From contig OX597814.1 in assembly GCA_951406725.2 (NCBI GenBank), positions 120,962,001 through 121,026,000 of the forward strand: a stretch of DNA of 64,000 nucleotides. The letters are read 5' to 3'. The translations under genes and the position numbers were made by a program. Positions within the stretch are counted from its first letter, which is position 1. The number at the start of each line of letters is the position of its first letter. Under the pieces are notes generated by a model. That model worked only from the letters and a program-made list of their open reading frames with translations. It had not been told where the DNA came from and ran no database searches. The stretch is from Octopus vulgaris. Its lineage: Eukaryota. Shown in pieces: positions 5,493 through 46,795 of the stretch.

Positions 5493-6289
5493 GAATATTA
5501 TATACCCACAAATGTAAGCACAACCATTATATATTTGGTAAGTTTTTTGCGCGTTGCTATTTTTTCCTCCATCGGTTTTCGAATTTAGTTACCACTAAAT
5601 CTATGATACCACGATAGGGCTGAAACTAACTCTTTTAGTTTTATCGCTATTCCTGTCATTCATTTAAAATATAGCTACTGTAGGTATTTGTCTTCCCAAT
5701 GTCTCTCACTTGCTTCCAGTTTCCCTTCACATATAGCACTAATTCTAGATCTCTGTATCACGATCTATTTCGCTTTAGTGGAAATTTTCAATGGTGTGAA
5801 GTTGATAACGATTTCGTGCGTCAGATTTAATTAAATTAAACGCCATGTGAAAGTTTAACGCAAATGGACATTTGTGCTATAATGTATTGCATATCTTATT
5901 CCTATCGGTAATGATACTGGGAATAAGGACTTGCTCTCCGCACACATTTTAATCTCCTTCATAAATGAGATTTATTCCATGCAGGTGTTTGCATGAAGAA
6001 AGTGCATTTATAAGAGCTGTTAAAACCCAAATACTTCCTGGTCCTTCAGGTAATATAAGCATAAACTCTCTATGTGTAGATGACAAGAAACCAATCAAAC
6101 AATTATCAAAATCATTTGTCAAGACACCCGAGCAGATGAAGGCGTTTAGTGCATTTACAGGTAAAATGAATAGATGATAAAAGATTCTGGGAACTTGGTT
6201 GAACAGGTTATTGAGAATCCAAATGTCAACATGTTCTCTAAAGCTGAATAAAGTGCATCACCTATGTCATCAAGGAATGTGAAGGGATA

Positions 6290-29007: not shown

Positions 29008-29594
29008 TACTAAGCCCTAATTATATAATGTAAAATTTTGAATTCGCCTTAAATGGTCATTTACATACTGAACACTTGGTGAAATTGATTAATTAATTAA
29101 TTTTACCCTCAATTGTTGATATTATAATTCATTTCTCTCGGTCATACTGCCTCGGTTCTCGCAGTTAAAATATAATGTTTGCTAGATAGACCACGTGGGT
29201 GGAAGGGGATTGAAGAAATTTACGCCTGCGCATTTTGAATTTGTTGACACTGTTAGTTGGAGTGGTTCATCTGAACTGATAAGTTCGCTGATAGGTAAAG
29301 TTCCTTCTTTTTAGTGTTTCCAAATCCAAATTAAGAAATTTTGAGCTGACGATGGAAATGCTGATTTTATTTGGCTAATCTTGAAACGTTGACGTACTCA
29401 AACGATGTATGTACTTGTGATATTTTTCTGTATTTACCTCCAAACCTTCGTGGGCTGTCTGGAGTAAACATTATCTGAGAGAAATTTTCTTTAAGTAGTA
29501 GAAATGCTAAGAAAATTTTTTTTTGGCTGCTATTTCTACTAAGTTCAGTATGTGGCAAAGTAATTTATTTTACTAAGCCCTAATTATATAATGT

Positions 29595-29933: not shown

Positions 29934-29997
29934 GGGGGGTGTATGCATATATATGTACATCTGTATAGATACATTTATTTATATATATATATATATA

Positions 29998-31968
29998 CTT
30001 TATTTTAAGCAGCAGAAAATTCAACAAAATCTGTTACTCTGAGTTTCTCGTTGCCGTTCATCAGACAGTTTTTGCTAGAATGGAACTTATATATTAATTC
30101 AATCTATACTCTTACAAACGCTACACCTTTAAAAAGAAATGGACTTGTTTGATTGGCCCTTTAGAAAAAACGGTCAATCTTCGAGCGATAAACAAAAAGG
30201 TCAAAAATATATGTATATATATATATAAAAAAAACTTATAAAAATTATAAAATCCGAGGAAAAAACCGAGGAAAAAACCTATTGCCGTTAATGAAGACAG
30301 TACAAATTAATGCATAGAAATTAAACCTGTTATAAATACTGCAATACATATTTATATTAAAATCCACATATATATATCAACATACACAAAAGGATGCGTG
30401 TAAACGCCATACATACATATACAGACGTATGAATATGAATCTAAATTATACACATAAAAGCATGTGTACATATATTCACGCAAACCGTCTCGCACGCAAG
30501 CTAAAATTCATCTATGTAGCAATTCTCATATACTGAGCAAGGAGGGGGAACGAAAGAAAGGGAAAGAGAGAAAAAGGAACGAAGGAGGGGTGGGGAAAAA
30601 ACTTGTAGCGATGTTGTTGGCATCTATAGAGGCCAGTATACATACAAGTTTGAATTGATACATATACATACCGTCGTGTGTATGCGTGCTTAAGCACAAG
30701 CATACTTTCACTTACACATACACAGATACGCATGCTTACAAATACATATGCTTTGCTATACACAAACTTATATAAACATTCTAAATTTGACAACATTGCT
30801 TTTTTTAAAAAAAAAACATTGCTTTTAAAAAATGGGTGCATTAATAAAAATATATACGAAAGACATATAAAATAAAATATAACATCCTATTTTGGGTCAT
30901 TTATAAATAATCAAGGTAATATAAATAATCAAGGTAATATAAATAATCAAGGTAATCCTATGCAATACAATAACATGAAAACAAAGTTTGTAGGTTTTTC
31001 CTAATATATATGTAGAAACAATAAGACTTTGCTATAGGTCCGTCGTAGCGCTCAAGAGTCAAAATCAAAATCAAAAAATCAAAATACAAAATATATACTC
31101 TATCCATATGGTATATTTATATTCGACATTTTAAATTTAGCCGCGTGCCTACATAAGTTCATTAACTCACTTCTTTGATTCAAAGAATTATTGTCTTTGA
31201 ATAATATGTGCATTTTCTCTAATAAGCAAAGCCTGCACTTGAAATTATATTTGTAAGCTCCATGCCTGTATGGTGCCGCCCTGTCCAGAATGCTCCATGT
31301 CACGTTGAAAGGTGGGGCTTCCTTTTCTTTTAGTTCCCAGACATATTTTGCTAGGCTGGTTTTCTTCCTATTCTCTGGGTATTTAAAAGAATTCTTATGA
31401 GAATAAAATCTTGTTTTAAATGAATTTTCTGAAGCCCCTGTGTATGTCTTGTATTCCGATAGAGCCTTCCACTTGCACCTTGGCTCTATAAACTACTCCT
31501 TTCACTAGACATTTCCCTTCTAACGGACAGGAGCTTTCGTTTTTGCAATTACATTTCTTAATGGGCTCGGCACCATGTCTAATCTCAATTAGCTTCCTAT
31601 TATGTTGGCTAATGTAAGAGGCGAAATTTCTGCAACAAGAATAGCTAACCTTCAGGGTTCTTCTATTAAATATTCGGTAGAATTTATGACCCTGCTTAAA
31701 ATGCTTAGAGACTAATCTCAAAAATTCGTTACCTATATTAGTCTTTACGGCCAAATTGAAAGCCGGGTTGAACCACAAAACTTTCCTGGTCCTAGTTCTT
31801 CGTGCAGCATTATTATTAGCATTAAGCTGGTTGAACTGGATCTTCTCCGAGGAATCCACTATTCTTTAATGCGCTATCGTAATAAGGTGCAGCATTATGG
31901 AATGCTGCCTCGTCCGAAGAAATTGAAGATATTCTTCTACCTACATTGCTGACTAAGTTGCTAAGGAT
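29998..31968 (-). mobile_element. 5'-truncated Penelope-like element (Naiad-like): RT thumb, linker, GIY-YIG endonuclease, 3' region with hammerhead
   Basis: RRISSISSDEAAF..AAPYY..ALKNSG, RTRKVLWFNPAF, KVSYSC, CNC....CPLEGKC, GVVYRA...TYTGA...FKTRF..H, CRLCLLEK, CRH; stop at 31100; ends AATAAA then (TA)n. Confidence 0.9.
30026..30073 (-). ncRNA. Minimal type I hammerhead ribozyme in the PLE terminal region (predicted)
   Basis: Minus strand: aaaacugu CUGAUGA acg gcaa cga GAAA cucagag UA acagauuuu; stem I cugu/acag, GCAA tetraloop stem II, near-palindromic stem III. Confidence 0.8.
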
Positions 31969-31969
31969 A

Positions 31970-33503
31970 ACTAACGAATTTTTGAGATTAGTCTCTAAGC
32001 ATTTTAAGCAGGGTCATAAATTCTACAGAATATTTAATAGAAGAACCCTGAAGGTTAGCTATTCTTGTTGCAGAAATTTCGCCTCTTACATTAGCCAACA
32101 TAATAGGAAGCTAATTGAGATTAGACATGGTGCCGAGCCCATTAAGAAATGTAATTGCAAAAACGAAAGCTCCTGTCCGTTAGAAGGGAAATGTCTAGTG
32201 AAAGGGAGTAGATTATAGAGCCAAGGTGCAAGTGGAAGGCTCATCGGAATACAAGACATACACAGGGGCTTCAGAAAATTCATTTAAAACAAGATTTTAT
32301 TCTCATAAGAATTCTTTTAAATACCCAGAGAATAGGAAGAAAACCAGCCTAGCAAAATATGTCTGGGAACTAAAAGAAAAGGAAGCCCCACCTTTCAACG
32401 TGACATGGAGCATTCTGGACGAGGGCGGCACCATACAGGCATGGAGCTTACAAATATAATTTCAAGTGCAGGCTTTGCTTATTAGAAAATGCATATTATT
32501 CAAAGACAATAATTCTTTGAATCAAAGAAGTGAGTTAATGAACTTATGTAGGCACGCGGTAAATTTAAAATGTCAGATATAAATATACCATATGGATAGA
32601 GTATATATTTTGTATTTTGATTTTGATTTTGATTTTGACTCTTGAGCTCTATAGCAAGTCTTATTGTTTCTACATATATATTAGGAAAAACCTACAAACT
32701 TTTGTTTTCATGTTATTGTATTGCATAGGATTACCTTGATTATTTATATTACCTTGATTATTTATATTACCTTGATTATTTATAAATGACCCAAAATAGG
32801 ATGTTATATTTTATTTTATATGTCTTTCGTATATATTTTTATTAATGCACCCATTTTTAAATAATGTTTTTTTAAAAAAAAGCAATGTTGTCAAATTTAG
32901 AATGTTTATATAAGTTTGTGTATAGCAAAGCATATGTATTTGTATGCGTATCTGTGTATGTGTAAAATTAGAATATGCTTGTGCTTAAGCACATACACAC
33001 GACGGTATGTATATGTATCAATTCAAACTTGTGTATGTATACTGGCCTCTATAGATGCCAACAACATCGCTACAAGTTTTTCCCCACCCTCCTTCGTTCC
33101 TTTTCTCTCTTTCCCTTTCTTTCGTTCCCCCTCCTTGCTCATATATGAGAATTGCTACATAGATGAATTTTAGCTTGCGTGCGAGACGGTTTGCGTGAAT
33201 ATATGTACACATGCTTTTATGTGTATAATTTAGATTCATATTCATACGTCTGTATATGTATGTATGGCGTTCACACGCATCCTTTTGTGTATGTTGATAT
33301 ATATATATGTGGATTTTAATATATATATGTATTGCAGTATTTATAACAGGTTTAATTTCTATGCATTAATTTGTACTGTCTTCATTAACGGCAATAGGTT
33401 TTTCCTCGGTTTTTCATATATATATATATATATATACATATATTTTTGACCTTTTTGTTGACCGTTTTTTCTAAAGGGTGGGTTCCATTCTAGCAAAAAC
33501 TGT
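31970..33503 (+). mobile_element. Inverted second copy of the same PLE 3' region
   Basis: Reverse complement of ~30065-31731 with many small deletions; ORF pieces 31946-32218 and 32226-32459 repeat the same peptide. Confidence 0.9.
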
Positions 33504-38295: not shown

Positions 38296-38332
<37 letters not shown>

Positions 38333-38752
38333 TCATAAATAAGGGCAAACGAAAAAATTTCGAATGCCAAATATGCTGAAAAATTGGACATATTTTTCAT
38401 TAGCCATATATTTTTTTTTCACAATACGCACGCTACTCCAAAAAAGGTCGACAGATATTTCTAAAAAATTCCATTATAACCATATCGGACCGATTTCAGG
38501 GTTAGCTCATAACAGCCCTCCATTCGTCAGTGATACATGTGGCAAAAGAAATAAATGAGATACTTACTCATACCCATGGAAGAAGCAAACACTAAGTCAT
38601 GAGCACAATTAAGCACCCCAAATACATCCAAAATAGAAATATTTTGGAGAGGGGAGGCTGGTATGCGTGGGCGACTGCTGGTCTTCCATAAACAACCTCG
38701 GAGGGTAACTTTCTAGGTGCAATTCCATGGTCATTCATGACCGAAGGAGGAC

Positions 38753-38790
<38 letters not shown>

Positions 38791-39068
38791 TTAATAAGGG
38801 TGAGAGAATTAGATACTAATTTAATAGTATATTTATTCAACACCAAGTGGCCTAGTGCTTCGAGAAACCTGGATTATTATAATATTTTATAACATATTAT
38901 AATATTTTTACAAAATAAATATAAGAGAGTGGTCACTATATTGCTCACTCTAGCACCAGTTAATCCAAAAGGTTTCAACCACGAAAATACATGCTTACCA
39001 TGAAAGTCAGTACGATTGTTAGCTCACACGGACAGGGCAAATAAAAAATAACAAAAATACAGATTATT

Positions 39069-39149
39069 TTGGGACAATTGTTTCGCTATTAATGGATTAA
39101 ATGTAATTTTACTTACAAAAAAAAAATCCATTTATAGCTCGTCAGCCAA
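39069..39149 (-). ncRNA. Type I hammerhead ribozyme, array unit 1
   Basis: uugg CUGACGA gcua...uagc GAAA caauug UC ccaa; predicted cleavage between 39073 and 39072. Confidence 0.88.
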
Positions 39150-39606
39150 GACTATCTGGATGAAATCCACTCAATCACACGCCAGATTTTACCATAACGA
39201 TAAATACGCGTGTGGTTCAATTGATTACATCCGACGTTATAATTCAAATGCCCCAACCAACAGCGCGCCAAACTTTCACGGAAAACAAATACAGCATTTA
39301 GAAATAAATGCAGCATAATTATAATTAATTAATAAGGGTGAAAGAATTAGATACTAATTTAATAGTATATTTATTCAACACCAAGTGGCCTAGTGCTTCG
39401 AGAAACCTGGATTATTATAATATTTTATAACATATTATAATATTTTTACAAAATAAATATAAGAGAGTGGTCACTATATTGCTCACTCTAGCACCAGTTA
39501 ATCCAAAAGGTTTCAACCACGAAAATACATGCTTACCATGAAAGTCAGTACGATTGTTAGCTCACACGGACAGGGCAAATAAAAAATAACAAAAATACAG
39601 ATTATT

Positions 39607-39684
39607 TTGGGACAATTGTTTCGCTATTAATGGATTAAATGTAATTTTACTTACAAAAAAATCCATTTGTAGCTCGTCAGCCAA
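39607..39684 (-). ncRNA. Type I hammerhead ribozyme, array unit 2
   Basis: Same motif as unit 1. Confidence 0.88.
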
Positions 39685-40141
39685 GACTATCTGGATGAAA
39701 TCCACTCAATCACACGCCAGATTTTACCATAACGATAAATACGCGTGTGGTTCAATTGATTACATCCGACGTTATAATTCAAATGCCCCAACCAACAGCG
39801 CGCCAAACTTTCACGGAAAACAAATACAGCATTTAGAAATAAATGCAGCATAATTATAATTAATTAATAAGGGTGAGAGAATTAGATACTAATTTAATAG
39901 TATATTTATTCAACACCAAGTGGCCTAGTGCTTCGAGAAACCTGGATTATTATAATATTTTATAACATATTATAATATTTTTACAAAATAAATATAAGAG
40001 AGTGGTCACTATATTGCTCACTCTAGCACCAGTTAATCCAAAAGGTTTCAACCACGAAAATACATGCTTACCATGAAAGTCAGTACGATTGTTAGCTCAC
40101 ACGGACAGGGCAAATAAAAAATAACAAAAATACAGATTATT

Positions 40142-40221
40142 TTGGGACAATTGTTTCGCTATTAATGGATTAAATGTAATTTTACTTACAAAAAAAAATC
40201 CATTTGTAGCTCGTCAGCCAA
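40142..40221 (-). ncRNA. Type I hammerhead ribozyme, array unit 3
   Basis: Same motif as unit 1. Confidence 0.88.
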
Positions 40222-40678
40222 GACTATCTGGATGAAATCCACTCAATCACACGCCAGATTTTACCATAACGATAAATACGCGTGTGGTTCAATTGATTAC
40301 ATCCGACGTTATAATTCAAATGCCCCAACCAACAGCGCGCCAAACTTTCACGGAAAACAAATACAGCATTTAGAAATAAATGCAGCATAATTATAATTAA
40401 TTAATAAGGGTGAGAGAATTAGATACTAATTTAATAGTATATTTATTCAACACCAAGTGGCCTAGTGCTTCGAGAAACCTGGATTATTATAATATTTTAT
40501 AACATATTATAATATTTTTACAAAATAAATATAAGAGAGTGGTCACTATATTGCTCACTCTAGCACCAGTTAATCCAAAAGGTTTCAACCACGAAAATAC
40601 ATGCTTACCATGAAAGTCAGTACGATTGTTAGCTCACACGGACAGGGCAAATAAAAAATAACAAAAATACAGATTATT

Positions 40679-40756
40679 TTGGGACAATTGTTTCGCTATT
40701 AATGGATTAAATGTAATTTTACTTACAAAAAAATCCATTTGTAGCTCGTCAGCCAA
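40679..40756 (-). ncRNA. Type I hammerhead ribozyme, array unit 4
   Basis: Same motif as unit 1. Confidence 0.88.
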
Positions 40757-41213
40757 GACTATCTGGATGAAATCCACTCAATCACACGCCAGATTTTACC
40801 ATAACGATAAATACGCGTGTGGTTCAATTGATTACATCCGACGTTATAATTCAAATGCCCCAACCAACAGCGCGCCAAACTTTCACGGAAAACAAATACA
40901 GCATTTAGAAATAAATGCAGCATAATTATAATTAATTAATAAGGGTGAGAGAATTAGATACTAATTTAATAGTATATTTATTCAACACCAAGTGGCCTAG
41001 TGCTTCGAGAAACCTGGATTATTATAATATTTTATAACATATTATAATATTTTTACAAAATAAATATAAGAGAGTGGTCACTATATTGCTCACTCTAGCA
41101 CCAGTTAATCCAAAAGGTTTCAACCACGAAAATACATGCTTACCATGAAAGTCAGTACGATTGTTAGCTCACACGGACAGGGCAAATAAAAAATAACAAA
41201 AATACAGATTATT

Positions 41214-41292
41214 TTGGGACAATTGTTTCGCTATTAATGGATTAAATGTAATTTTACTTACAAAAAAAATCCATTTGTAGCTCGTCAGCCAA
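41214..41292 (-). ncRNA. Type I hammerhead ribozyme, array unit 5
   Basis: Same motif as unit 1. Confidence 0.88.
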
Positions 41293-41749
41293 GACTATCT
41301 GGATGAAATCCACTCAATCACACGCCAGATTTTACCATAACGATAAATACGCGTGTGGTTCAATTGATTACATCCGACGTTATAATTCAAATGCCCCAAC
41401 CAACAGCGCGCCAAACTTTCACGGAAAACAAATACAGCATTTAGAAATAAATGCAGCATAATTATAATTAATTAATAAGGGTGAGAGAATTAGATACTAA
41501 TTTAATAGTATATTTATTCAACACCAAGTGGCCTAGTGCTTCGAGAAACCTGGATTATTATAATATTTTATAACATATTATAATATTTTTACAAAATAAA
41601 TATAAGAGAGTGGTCACTATATTGCTCACTCTAGCACCAGTTAATCCAAAAGGTTTCAACCACGAAAATACATGCTTACCATGAAAGTCAGTACGATTGT
41701 TAGCTCACACGGACAGGGCAAATAAAAAATAACAAAAATACAGATTATT

Positions 41750-41829
41750 TTGGGACAATTGTTTCGCTATTAATGGATTAAATGTAATTTTACTTACAAA
41801 AAAAAATCCATTTGTAGCTCGTCAGCCAA
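41750..41829 (-). ncRNA. Type I hammerhead ribozyme, array unit 6
   Basis: Same motif as unit 1. Confidence 0.88.
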
Positions 41830-42286
41830 GACTATCTGGATGAAATCCACTCAATCACACGCCAGATTTTACCATAACGATAAATACGCGTGTGGTTCAA
41901 TTGATTACATCCGACGTTATAATTCAAATGCCCCAACCAACAGCGCGCCAAACTTTCACGGAAAACAAATACAGCATTTAGAAATAAATGCAGCATAATT
42001 ATAATTAATTAATAAGGGTGAGAGAATTAGATACTAATTTAATAGTATATTTATTCAACACCAAGTGGCCTAGTGCTTCGAGAAACCTGGATTATTATAA
42101 TATTTTATAACATATTATAATATTTTTACAAAATAAATATAAGAGAGTGGTCACTATATTGCTCACTCTAGCACCAGTTAATCCAAAAGGTTTCAACCAC
42201 GAAAATACATGCTTACCATGAAAGTCAGTACGATTGTTAGCTCACACGGACAGGGCAAATAAAAAATAACAAAAATACAGATTATT

Positions 42287-42364
42287 TTGGGACAATTGTT
42301 TCGCTATTAATGGATTAAATGTAATTTTACTTACAAAAAAATCCATTTGTAGCTCGTCAGCCAA
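42287..42364 (-). ncRNA. Type I hammerhead ribozyme, array unit 7
   Basis: Same motif as unit 1. Confidence 0.88.
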
Positions 42365-42786
42365 GACTATCTGGATGAAATCCACTCAATCACACGCCAG
42401 ATTTTACCATAACGATAAATACGCGTGTGGTTCAATTGATTACATCCGACGTTATAATTCAAATGCCCCAACCAACAGCGCGCCAAACTTTCACGGAAAA
42501 CAAATACAGCATTTAGAAATAAATGCAGCATAATTATAATTAATTAATAAGGGTGAGAGAATTAGATACTAATTTAATAGTATATTTATTCAACACCAAG
42601 TGGCCTAGTGCTTCGAGAAACCTGGATTATTATAATATTTTATAACATATTATAATATTTTTACAAAATAAATATAAGAGAGTGGTCACTATATTGCTCA
42701 CTCTAGCACCAGTTAATCCAAAAGGTTTCAACCACGAAAATACATGCTTACCATGAAAGTCAGTACGATTGTTAGCTCACGATTGT

Positions 42787-43065
<279 letters not shown>

Positions 43066-43889: not shown

Positions 43890-44025
43890 TGAATTGGTTC
43901 TTATTTTATCGATCCTGAAATAATGAAAGACGAAGTCGATTTTGGCGAAATTTGAACTCAGTGTGTAACGGTAGAAGAAATGCAGCTAATCATTTTGTTT
44001 AACGTGTCAACGATTGTGCTAGCTG
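43890..44025 (-). mobile_element. SINE family A copy (degenerate)
   Basis: ttttatcgatcctgaaa...gtcgattttggcgaaatttgaactcag...aacgattgtgctagct. Confidence 0.6.
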
Positions 44026-44830
44026 ACAGCTCTATTTGTTCACGAAAATTGAGAGGAATCTACATCTTTTAAATTATTTTTTGTATCAAGGCATATACTA
44101 ATCTATGACTAAAAGGAAAATGACACTATAATTTGAAGTGTTACACTAGAATTGTGGGGATATATTAACATTAGGACATGTCATATGTGTAAGTGGAATA
44201 GGGATCTGAACAGGGGATTGTGCCAGCTGACAGCTCTATTTGTTCACGAAAATTGAGAGGAATCTACATCTTCTAAATTATCTTTTGTATCAAGGCATAT
44301 ACTAATCTATGACTAAAAGGAAAATGACACTATAATTTGAAGTGTTACAACTACAATTGCGGGGATATATTAACATTAGGACATGTCATATGTGTAAGTG
44401 GAATAGGGATCTGAACAGGGGATTGTGCCAGCTGACAGCTCTATTTGTTCACGAAAATTGAGAGGAATCTACATCTTTTAAATTATCTTTTGTATCAAGG
44501 CATATACTAATCTATGACTAAAAGGAAAATGACACTATAATTTGAATTGTTACACTAGAATTGTTGGGATATATTAACATTAGGACATGTCATATGTGTA
44601 AGTGGAATAGGGATCTGAACAGGGGATTGTGCCAGCTGACAGCTCTATTTGTTCACGAAAATTGAGAGGAACCTACATCTTTTAAATTATCTTTTGTATC
44701 AAGGCATATACTAATCTATGACAGAAAGGAAAATGACACTATAGTTTGAAATGTTACAACTACAATTGTGGGGATATATTAACATTAGGACATGTCATAT
44801 GTGTAAGTGGAATAGCGATCTGAACAGGGG
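44021..44830. repeat. Tandem repeat, 204/205-bp unit x4 (ABAB organisation)
   Basis: agctgacagctctatttg at 44021, 44225, 44430 and 44634. Confidence 0.95.
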
Positions 44831-45411
44831 AATGCATTGACCTGTCATGTACGTGTGGTACTGCTTTTTCTCCAAAGAAGATGCATCCATAAGTTGTCAC
44901 GGTGTGCTAGCTCTGAAGAATGCACAATATATGTATGCGTAGCAGATGGGTAGTGTATTTTGTTCAAGTACCTGCAACGGCGTTTTAAAGAGCGTGTTTG
45001 CCGTAAGCTGAATGACTGTGCTATTGATTGAAAGTGTTATCATTGTTGCCAGCTGGGAGGATGGAGACAGAGATTCTTGTTTACAATACAAGCGAGAGAT
45101 ATGTAGTTTGCTGCGAGGAACAATGCTGTGGATAGCGATATGCATGTAGGGTATATAAACAAAAATTAGCAAACACCAGAATATTCCTTTCTTAGTGGTA
45201 AGACCATTGCGGATCTACTTCTAGCATAATGGATGTCCACGTAGTGGTCATCCCTCATATATGTATGCCATATAATTTTTCTTAATATTCAGATTTTAAT
45301 ATGCTAGACCACTGGTTTTAAATTGATATTAATCAAATAATTATTCAATAATTCACCTTTATTACTTTAAATTTATATATGTATGCATGTATATATATAT
45401 ATATATATATA

Positions 45412-46201: not shown

Positions 46202-46246
<45 letters not shown>

Positions 46247-46254
<8 letters not shown>

Positions 46255-46726
46255 TCACAATAAGGGTGAAAAAATTGAATATTAATTAATAACATCAATG
46301 TAAAAAACCAAGTGGCCTAGCGTAAAAAAACTGAGATACAGTAAAAATTATTAATACAAGTAATAAGCGAGAGACCACAAGTGGTCACTCTAATGCTAGA
46401 AATAGATCCGCAAAAGGAATCCACCACTAAAGAATTGTTCTCAAGTATCAATTCAACACGCCAAGAATGTAAGCGGGCAGGACAAATGAAAAATAACGAA
46501 AAAATAGATTAACTCTATACAATTGTTTCATCGTTAATAGATTGCGTAATTTTACTTACATAATCATTTTCGAATCCTCAGTAGAGTATATCAAAAATAT
46601 AATTTGTTGAATCGATCGCCAAAATCCATACGAAGCCGAGCAAAGGCGAACGGTACAGCTTGAGAACAATTCTTTAGTGGTGGATTCCCTTTGCGGATCT
46701 ATTTCTAGCGTTAGAGTGACCACACT

Positions 46727-46728
<2 letters not shown>
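46247..46728 (-). mobile_element. Diverged relative of the 536-bp array unit, with hammerhead and terminal inverted duplication
   Basis: Shares aataagggtga, accaagtggcctag, gtggtcact, aaaaataac.aaaa, caattgtttc and gtaattttacttaca in the same order; 46378-46445 is inverted at 46659-46728. Confidence 0.8.
46512..46587 (-). ncRNA. Type I hammerhead ribozyme (predicted)
   Basis: acucua CUGAGGA uucg...cgau GAAA caauug UA uagagu; perfect 6-bp stem I. Confidence 0.82.

Positions 46729-46795
<67 letters not shown>

Follow-up and report, generated by a model that had tools for sequence, protein, structure and literature searches.

A tandem hammerhead repeat family in the Octopus vulgaris genome with the paired two-site insertion signature of Penelope-like elements

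Animal retrozymes have been described from coral, mussel and axolotl by Cervera and de la Pena (2020, PMC7229834), who consider Penelope-like elements (PLEs) 'a strong candidate' for their helper and propose that tandem complementary DNA (cDNA) is made from a primed circle. Circles have likewise been proposed as templates for more-than-unit retrotranscription in a study of PLE hammerheads (PMC4209133). Li, Clavereau and Pollet (bioRxiv 10.64898/2026.07.22.740005) treat vertebrate retrozymes as derivatives of pseudo-long terminal repeats (pseudo-LTRs, or pLTRs), and describe the mechanism as 'to be elucidated'; the invertebrates in the available passages of that preprint are three insects and a coral. 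For PLEs themselves, a purified element was reported to use two internal start sites, with both strands extended and a dimer predicted (PMC11167929), and PLE insertions are tandem or inverted, with a tail at one end only and a bias towards microsatellites (PMC8557442). Retrozymes as a class, the proposal of a PLE helper and the structural traits of PLEs have thus all been published (PMC4209133, PMC7229834, bioRxiv 10.64898/2026.07.22.740005, PMC8557442). Here, a hammerhead-bearing tandem array in a 64,000-nucleotide (nt) stretch of the Octopus vulgaris genome (contig OX597814.1, positions 120,962,001 to 121,026,000; hereafter, the window) is compared with these systems, and the RNA-3' ends of its family's insertions are found to lie at two fixed points that are used in strict pairs.

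The array occupies positions 38782..42780 on the minus strand (3,999 nt) and consists of 7.45 units of 535-538 nt, with anchor-to-anchor lengths of 538, 535, 537, 535, 536, 537 and 535 bp (n=7). Apart from one A-run, the units differ only by two single substitutions, which fall in units 1 and 2, and (TA)n tracts flank the array on the left and right, which bears out a preliminary description of about 7.5 near-identical units that differ in A-run length and lie between such tracts. No stop-to-stop frame of at least 90 amino acids (aa) occurs within the array, and the open reading frame (ORF) of an autonomous PLE, encoding a reverse transcriptase and a GIY-YIG endonuclease, is thus absent from it. 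By sequence, the array family is a non-LTR retrozyme, as the preliminary description held: type I hammerheads stand in tandem, one in each of the seven full units, the units are non-coding with a GC content of 32%, and young copies are dispersed in large number through the genome. The family has in common with the retrozymes of PMC7229834 the tandem non-coding units, one type I hammerhead in each, the low GC content and the co-existence of PLEs, and perhaps a self-paired circle, predicted here for either strand. On the other hand, those retrozymes measure about 170-400 nt and their RNA has been shown, whereas the octopus family has 536-nt units and a long stem II and is known from DNA; neither fixed start sites nor inverted arms are described in the passages of PMC7229834 available, and octopus, cephalopods and microsatellites go unmentioned there. 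The array also fits the 'active' definition of the 2026 preprint (at least two consecutive hammerhead units), as well as its PLE co-occurrence. The remark that the unit is longer than typical thus holds against the 170-400 nt of PMC7229834 and fails against the 51-972 bp of the preprint (bioRxiv 10.64898/2026.07.22.740005), within which the unit falls. The literature searched yielded no account of a retrozyme from octopus, none of the present family and none of a retrozyme with paired start sites, and supplements may hold cephalopod examples; the word 'ribozyme' does not appear in the consulted part of the 2026 octopus repeat annotation (PMC13282606).

The whole genome (2.8 Gb, 227 contigs) was searched for the family, and 1,070 candidate places were obtained, 40 of which were scored and showed 97-100% identity. 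A 17-mer from the 3' half of the hammerhead has 2,570 exact copies genome-wide, compared with 0 for its reversed control; since the first 100 of these matches fall in 38 loci, the family is estimated to occupy about 1,000, and the array is one among these young, non-coding insertions scattered through the genome. Altogether, 77 loci were examined, 37 of them chosen by position (the first 75 Mb of contig C1) and 40 by similarity, including the window; five loci of a diverged subfamily were removed before the counts, leaving 72, and three unsplit pieces were removed before the haplotype test. At least half of the array words were also present in 20 of 21 listed sequencing runs under three organism labels, none of these being recorded as RNA, and they speak neither for nor against expression.

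On their RNA-3' side, the insertions end at two points of the unit, whose nucleotides are counted here from the predicted hammerhead cut. Of the RNA-3' ends adjoining (TA)n, 115 in number, site A (nt 157-164, about 161) accounts for 56 and site B (nt 283-296, about 291) for another 56, which leaves only 3 in other places; exact junctions genome-wide number 816 for B-(TA)n and 527 for A-(TA)n (controls 0). The 72 loci comprise 28 one-arm insertions, 42 two-arm insertions, in which the arms meet head to head with both 3' ends outward, and 2 complex ones. All 38 classifiable two-arm loci join one A end to one B end (12/12 of those chosen by position and 26/26 of those chosen by similarity; p=4e-12), the remaining 4 of the 42 having an odd or cut-off end and standing outside this count. 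Similarly, coordinate lists of 100 B ends and 57 A ends (C1 and part of C2), whose pairs overlap partly with the 38 loci, give 29 AB pairs, 0 AA and 0 BB. The preliminary description, which was right on the class, had missed this paired two-site, two-arm signature of Penelope type.

The insertion in the window has a single arm, which runs from site B (nt 291 after the cut) to nt 46. The (TA)n target tract at its RNA-3' end, where priming would have taken place, spans 38757..38785 and overlaps the unit through TATA microhomology. Site B (nt 283-291, 38782..38790, minus strand) is the fixed RNA-3' end used here and the putative start of reverse transcription, and site A (nt 157-164, 38909..38916, minus strand), the second fixed end, recurs in every unit and is unused as an end in this array. 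At the 5'-truncation junction (42781..42791, plus strand), 8-9 nt are re-copied from just inside the end and are followed by T residues, presumably because the reverse transcriptase, or else end joining, slipped, and the (TA)n tract of the truncated side follows at 42792..42855. The ends of the insertion lie within (TA)n, which would mask any target-site duplication.

[quoted passage not shown] The likeness to Poseidon PAc (PMC11167929) and to Hydra, Neptune and Naiad elements (PMC8557442), as far as these are covered in the passages cited, extends to the two internal starts, the extension of both strands, the AT-rich or (TA)n targets, the tandem and inverted arms and the 'tail' at one end only (PMC8557442). 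In contrast to these PLEs, the octopus unit has no ORF, its two sites are spaced by about 130 nt as against a tail of 30-40 nt, and its arms reach 12.7 units; moreover, both octopus junctions fit short UA pairing, whereas the PAc starts are non-homologous to the target (PMC11167929). Because the ends lie at two fixed points in strict pairs, it is likely that a PLE-type enzyme worked on both sides of the cut DNA.

The same footprint is left by two intact PLE families of the octopus genome. A relic of the Hydra-like family PLE-A lies in the window at about 29980-33500, 5 kb to the left of the array, as an inverted two-arm copy with a hammerhead of short stem II at 30064 on the minus strand. PLE-A has 12,091 candidate places, many intact 727-aa frames, a hammerhead and a 3,364-nt unit, which its own arms exceed, and it carries the RWK and DKT motifs given for Hydra in the consulted part of PMC8557442; its ends lie at +37-42 and +109-112, and A and B are combined in 7/7 two-arm loci in which both ends were seen. 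PLE-C, for which 553 candidates were counted, has frames that reach about 900 aa and a hammerhead with a long stem II; it ends at about +60 and +215, with A and B combined in 2/2 loci. PLE-B, with a 781-aa frame that has Pfam matches to RVT_1 and GIY-YIG and which we label Neptune-like from its cysteine linker, also ends in (TA)n. In Pfam, no match was obtained for the PLE-A pieces or the full ORF, and a protein search with PLE-A gave 1,074 relatives among the 7,996 sequences scored, nearly all unnamed, and no new in-genome query for a parent element.

A sister family of the retrozyme follows the same rule. It is represented in the window at 46245-46730 by a two-arm copy with a 525-nt unit and a minus-strand hammerhead (predicted cut 46518/46517); it shows 59% global identity to the 536-nt unit, has 2,401 candidate places, is older, and carries compensatory changes in stem I of its hammerhead. 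Insertions of this sister family end at 164 and 266-280, and A and B are paired in them as before, although the query itself included both arms. A third family, a 484-nt hammerhead tandem (L081, 8650-9265), has the sequence around site B in common with the 536-nt family. At L081, this family and a PLE-A end adjoin one TA tract. A joined structure was also observed, in which a retrozyme of the diverged subfamily lies in a PLE-C copy with 4 nt of microhomology (L133 7850-9290, examined together with L217 and L219). A template switch onto helper mRNA was considered for the L133 chimera and rejected, as PLE-C runs past the join in the paralogous L219, which has the same flank. The comparison suggests instead a target deletion of more than 1.5 kb at a one-arm insertion in L133.

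The hammerhead motif is present on the minus strand in 7/7 copies with its core intact (UUGG-CUGACGA-GCUA...UAGC-GAAA-CAAUUG-UC-CCAA), so that the complete type I hammerhead proposed earlier for each full unit stands. The seven hammerheads lie at 39069..39149, 39607..39684, 40142..40221, 40679..40756, 41214..41292, 41750..41829 and 42287..42364, all on the minus strand, and their C17 residues, after which the cuts are predicted, are at plus coordinates 39073, 39611, 40146, 40683, 41218, 41754 and 42291, the first cut (39073/39072) being exactly where it had been placed before. A minus-strand transcript would accordingly be expected to release the six monomers foreseen in the preliminary description, each of 535-538 nt. 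Stem I has 4 bp and stem III is palindromic, as described; stem II needs correction, being long, an extended hairpin with about 52-55 nt between the core strands. In these respects, the motif resembles the PLE hammerheads of PMC4209133, which in the passages cited have a short helix I, a large helix II, a small palindromic helix III and predicted dimer activity; it differs from them in standing in a protein-free unit and in a helix II extension of about 17 bp with internal loops.

Among five related hammerheads of this and related families, the few rows on which the covariation test rests, 7/16 pairs are changed on both sides while the core is fixed; by stem, compensatory pairs amount to 4/5 in stem I and 3/4 in stem II, against 0-1 in slid controls. 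The hammerhead is beyond chance because the 17-mer count exceeds its control as given above and the covariation exceeds the slid controls. The Rfam check that had been suggested for RF00163 came out negative: of the 25 matches that positions 36-46 kb gave at E<=10, none is to a hammerhead, of this or any other model, and the long stem II is the likely reason. In predicted folds, the circular monomer of the minus strand is more stable than shuffles (z=-6.5), and the palindromic stem III pairs intermolecularly when two copies are cofolded.

The sequence of the units within an insertion points to one template. At 22 segregating sites, the arms of the same locus are identical in 606/607 locus-by-site comparisons (440 expected), and the divergence is 0.1-0.3% within loci, compared with 2.7% between loci (position-chosen set). 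Both arms exceed one unit in 21/42 two-arm loci, the longest arm measuring 6,810 nt (12.7 units) and arm and array sizes spreading from 0.1 to 12.7 units across loci, and site A is passed by 37/41 B arms. The 5' stops, of which 111 were placed, are scattered near-uniformly over the unit (chi2 p=0.27; Rayleigh p=0.03), and a pile-up at the cut, which was looked for, is not seen among them. L1-style twin priming on one linear RNA is excluded because the stops do not cluster at the start of the other arm (3/38 compared with 8.1 at random). A multimeric circle was also rejected, since strictly periodic variants are predicted by it and the observed ones are irregular. The rolling-circle proposal of the preliminary description therefore gains support from the fixed internal starts, the random stops, the multi-unit arms and the single haplotype, but the non-integer copy number with which it had been argued is by itself no proof of a circle.

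Based on the results presented above, we consider it likely that a PLE reverse transcriptase/endonuclease, acting in trans, wrote the array into (TA)n from a single, probably circular, 536-nt RNA. Minus-strand multimers would cleave themselves, the palindromic stem III probably letting them act as dimers, and the cleaved monomers would be ligated into circles. A dimeric PLE protein would then nick both strands of (TA)n, and one strand would be primed at A and the other at B by short UA pairing. Displacing strand as it goes, each subunit would roll round its template up to the point where it stops, and the ends of both cDNAs would finally be joined head to head; where one arm failed or was lost, a one-arm array like that in the window would result.

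Several observations weigh against this mechanism. Transcription, cleavage and the circle are predictions from the DNA. The fold of the plus strand likewise beats shuffles (z=-5.5), which leaves the fold score silent on which strand is the RNA. In the passages cited, the PLE used unprocessed RNA in vitro and hammerhead cleavage was dispensable (PMC11167929), and 1/9 Xenopus dimers cleaved in vitro (bioRxiv 10.64898/2026.07.22.740005). When the untranslated ends of PLE-A, PLE-B and PLE-C were compared with the unit, none proved significantly similar to it (p=0.28-0.86 against shuffles), and neither a parent nor a helper is thus identified among these three, other PLE families having been sampled non-exhaustively for parent homology; short motif resemblances between the unit and PLE ends, picked out by eye, proved no better than shuffles. 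In this respect, the octopus case differs from that of the 2026 preprint, in the available passages of which the PLE link consists of co-occurrence and, in Xenopus, pLTR homology, whereas the link here is a shared footprint, with no pLTR homology to the three PLEs. In addition, 15 stops lie within 20 nt of the cut where 8.3 are expected (p=0.018; 8 and 7 on the two sides), array L047 mixes two haplotypes at 4 sites, 40/72 loci were picked by similarity to the window, and an ideal error-free monomer circle does not predict the flickering sites discussed below, which a damaged template base would.

The main rival keeps the two-site priming by a PLE and replaces the circle with an uncleaved or partly cleaved linear multimer transcribed from a homogeneous source array. 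Such a source would also yield one haplotype per insertion, unprocessed RNA was the main in vitro substrate and cleavage was dispensable there, a linear multimer being favoured for that element in the same study (PMC11167929), and palindromic hammerheads with a short stem III are reported to cleave poorly (PMC4209133, in the part consulted). Arrays copied in this way would only shorten in each generation while their units drift, yet 12-13-unit arms are found at 0.1-0.3% internal divergence against the 2.7% between loci; the stops do not cluster at the start of the other arm, and stems I and II have been kept by compensatory change. Long homogeneous arrays are not easily kept through the family history by this route, and we regard the linear multimer as unlikely.

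A further possibility is that cleaved linear monomers were copied in series by template jumping, to which the mild stop excess near the cut and the mixed haplotypes of L047 would correspond. Jumps between monomer ends are opposed by the absence of any stop at nt 1-2 (0/111), by the presence of the excess on both sides of the cut and by the monomorphic state of the units in 1,163/1,172 within-insertion comparisons (620 expected) despite the many haplotypes of the family, and this reading appears very improbable to us. Slightly less credence still is given to the local expansion, through unequal crossover, of a satellite or pLTR remnant in which the hammerhead would be a passenger. Near-identical units do stand in tandem, and local amplification has been proposed in the preprint cited (bioRxiv 10.64898/2026.07.22.740005), but about 1,000 dispersed loci show 3' ends that are fixed, 5' ends at random positions and arms in inverted orientation. 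Most rare alleles, moreover, are confined to a single unit (80) or fixed in all units (18), those in a subset of units (14) being seldom adjacent, and array length is unrelated to internal divergence (rho -0.01, 54 loci); both the rare-allele pattern and this lack of relation argue against local expansion.

The helper might instead be a long interspersed nuclear element (LINE) outside the PLEs, as LINE-like ORFs with endonuclease and reverse transcriptase occur in the window and in the loci and the unit has no sequence link to the three PLE families; against this, neither poly(A) nor a 3' end set by a tail is present, and PLE-A and PLE-C are exact counterparts in their paired internal starts and in their head-to-head arms within (TA)n, so that a LINE helper seems about as improbable as local expansion. 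Finally, an assembly expansion, which the view from an assembly rather than raw long reads and the restriction of unit differences mainly to one homopolymer might bring to mind, is scarcely credible, since dozens of independent loci with unique flanks obey the same rules at 0.1-12.7 units, the exact copy number here being that of the assembly.

Under the preferred mechanism of a PLE enzyme copying one circle, one class of variants deserves separate treatment. In 8/35 loci with at least 4 covering units, 9 sites flicker: from unit to unit, and in no regular order, they show either the base of the family or another one, where 0.06-0.19 would be expected by chance in this count, which omits the U-run and nt 169-200. 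In 8/9 cases, the alternative base is private to the locus, and in 4 both arms have it. Such sites would arise if a damaged or modified base were re-read in each pass of one circle; gene conversion or assembly polishing could also be their source. A joint reading is put forward here tentatively, as a possibility rather than the expected outcome: the insertions may be a fossil record of two-enzyme rolling-circle reverse transcription, in which a dimeric Penelope enzyme reads one circle many times at once from two starts, flickering may mark a single damaged or modified base, the same rule may cover the pseudo-LTRs, tails and inverted arms of PLEs in general, and a clade of retrozymes that lacks a close PLE parent may consist of long-lived parasites that switch between PLE helpers.

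Some further features were observed in the family and its surroundings. The same 3-nt deletion at unit nt 173-175 occurs in single units of the unrelated arrays L139, L151, L041, L048 and L168, and this position is likely a slippage hot spot. At unit nt about 338-346 (window about 39800), the motif UUUGGCGCG is present, as it is in the 484-nt hammerhead family; we take it to resemble an E2F site, which might belong to an internal promoter. Type I hammerhead-like motifs of other families lie in the window at 38530 (minus strand), just to the left of the TA tract of the array in an element ending near 38330, and at 29346 (plus strand). At 44012-44831, there are four 204-bp tandem units, 96% alike, without a hammerhead in the motif scan. 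In a crude scan of 1.18 Mb of loci, about 38 motif groups were distinguished, many of them distinct type I hammerhead families with a palindromic stem III and a long stem II, and there seems to be a large unclassified set of such hammerhead elements in the genome. With respect to the PLEs, a long asparagine-rich insert, partly encoded by (AAT)n, stands between the reverse transcriptase and the endonuclease in PLE-C frames of about 900 aa (L220, L223, L225, L233, L236 and L246). At the 3' end of PLE-B (L121, about 5640-5680), a hammerhead-like motif was recognized by eye about 65 nt from the end; it has U3/A8 in place of C3/G8 and was missed by the motif scan.

How animal retrozymes spread is an open question in print, and the footprints of this family make the proposed link between retrozymes and PLEs testable. 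The family is young, abundant and protein-free, and it predicts two start nucleotides, one for each strand, one template molecule and multi-round products. Intact candidate enzymes (ORFs of 727, 781 and about 900 aa) are encoded in the genome, so that both the helper and the use of circles could be tested directly with the in vitro assay already available for PLEs. If the mechanism proposed here is true, the descriptive features of PLEs (the pseudo-LTR, the one-ended tail and the inverted arm) would be tied to a single mechanism.

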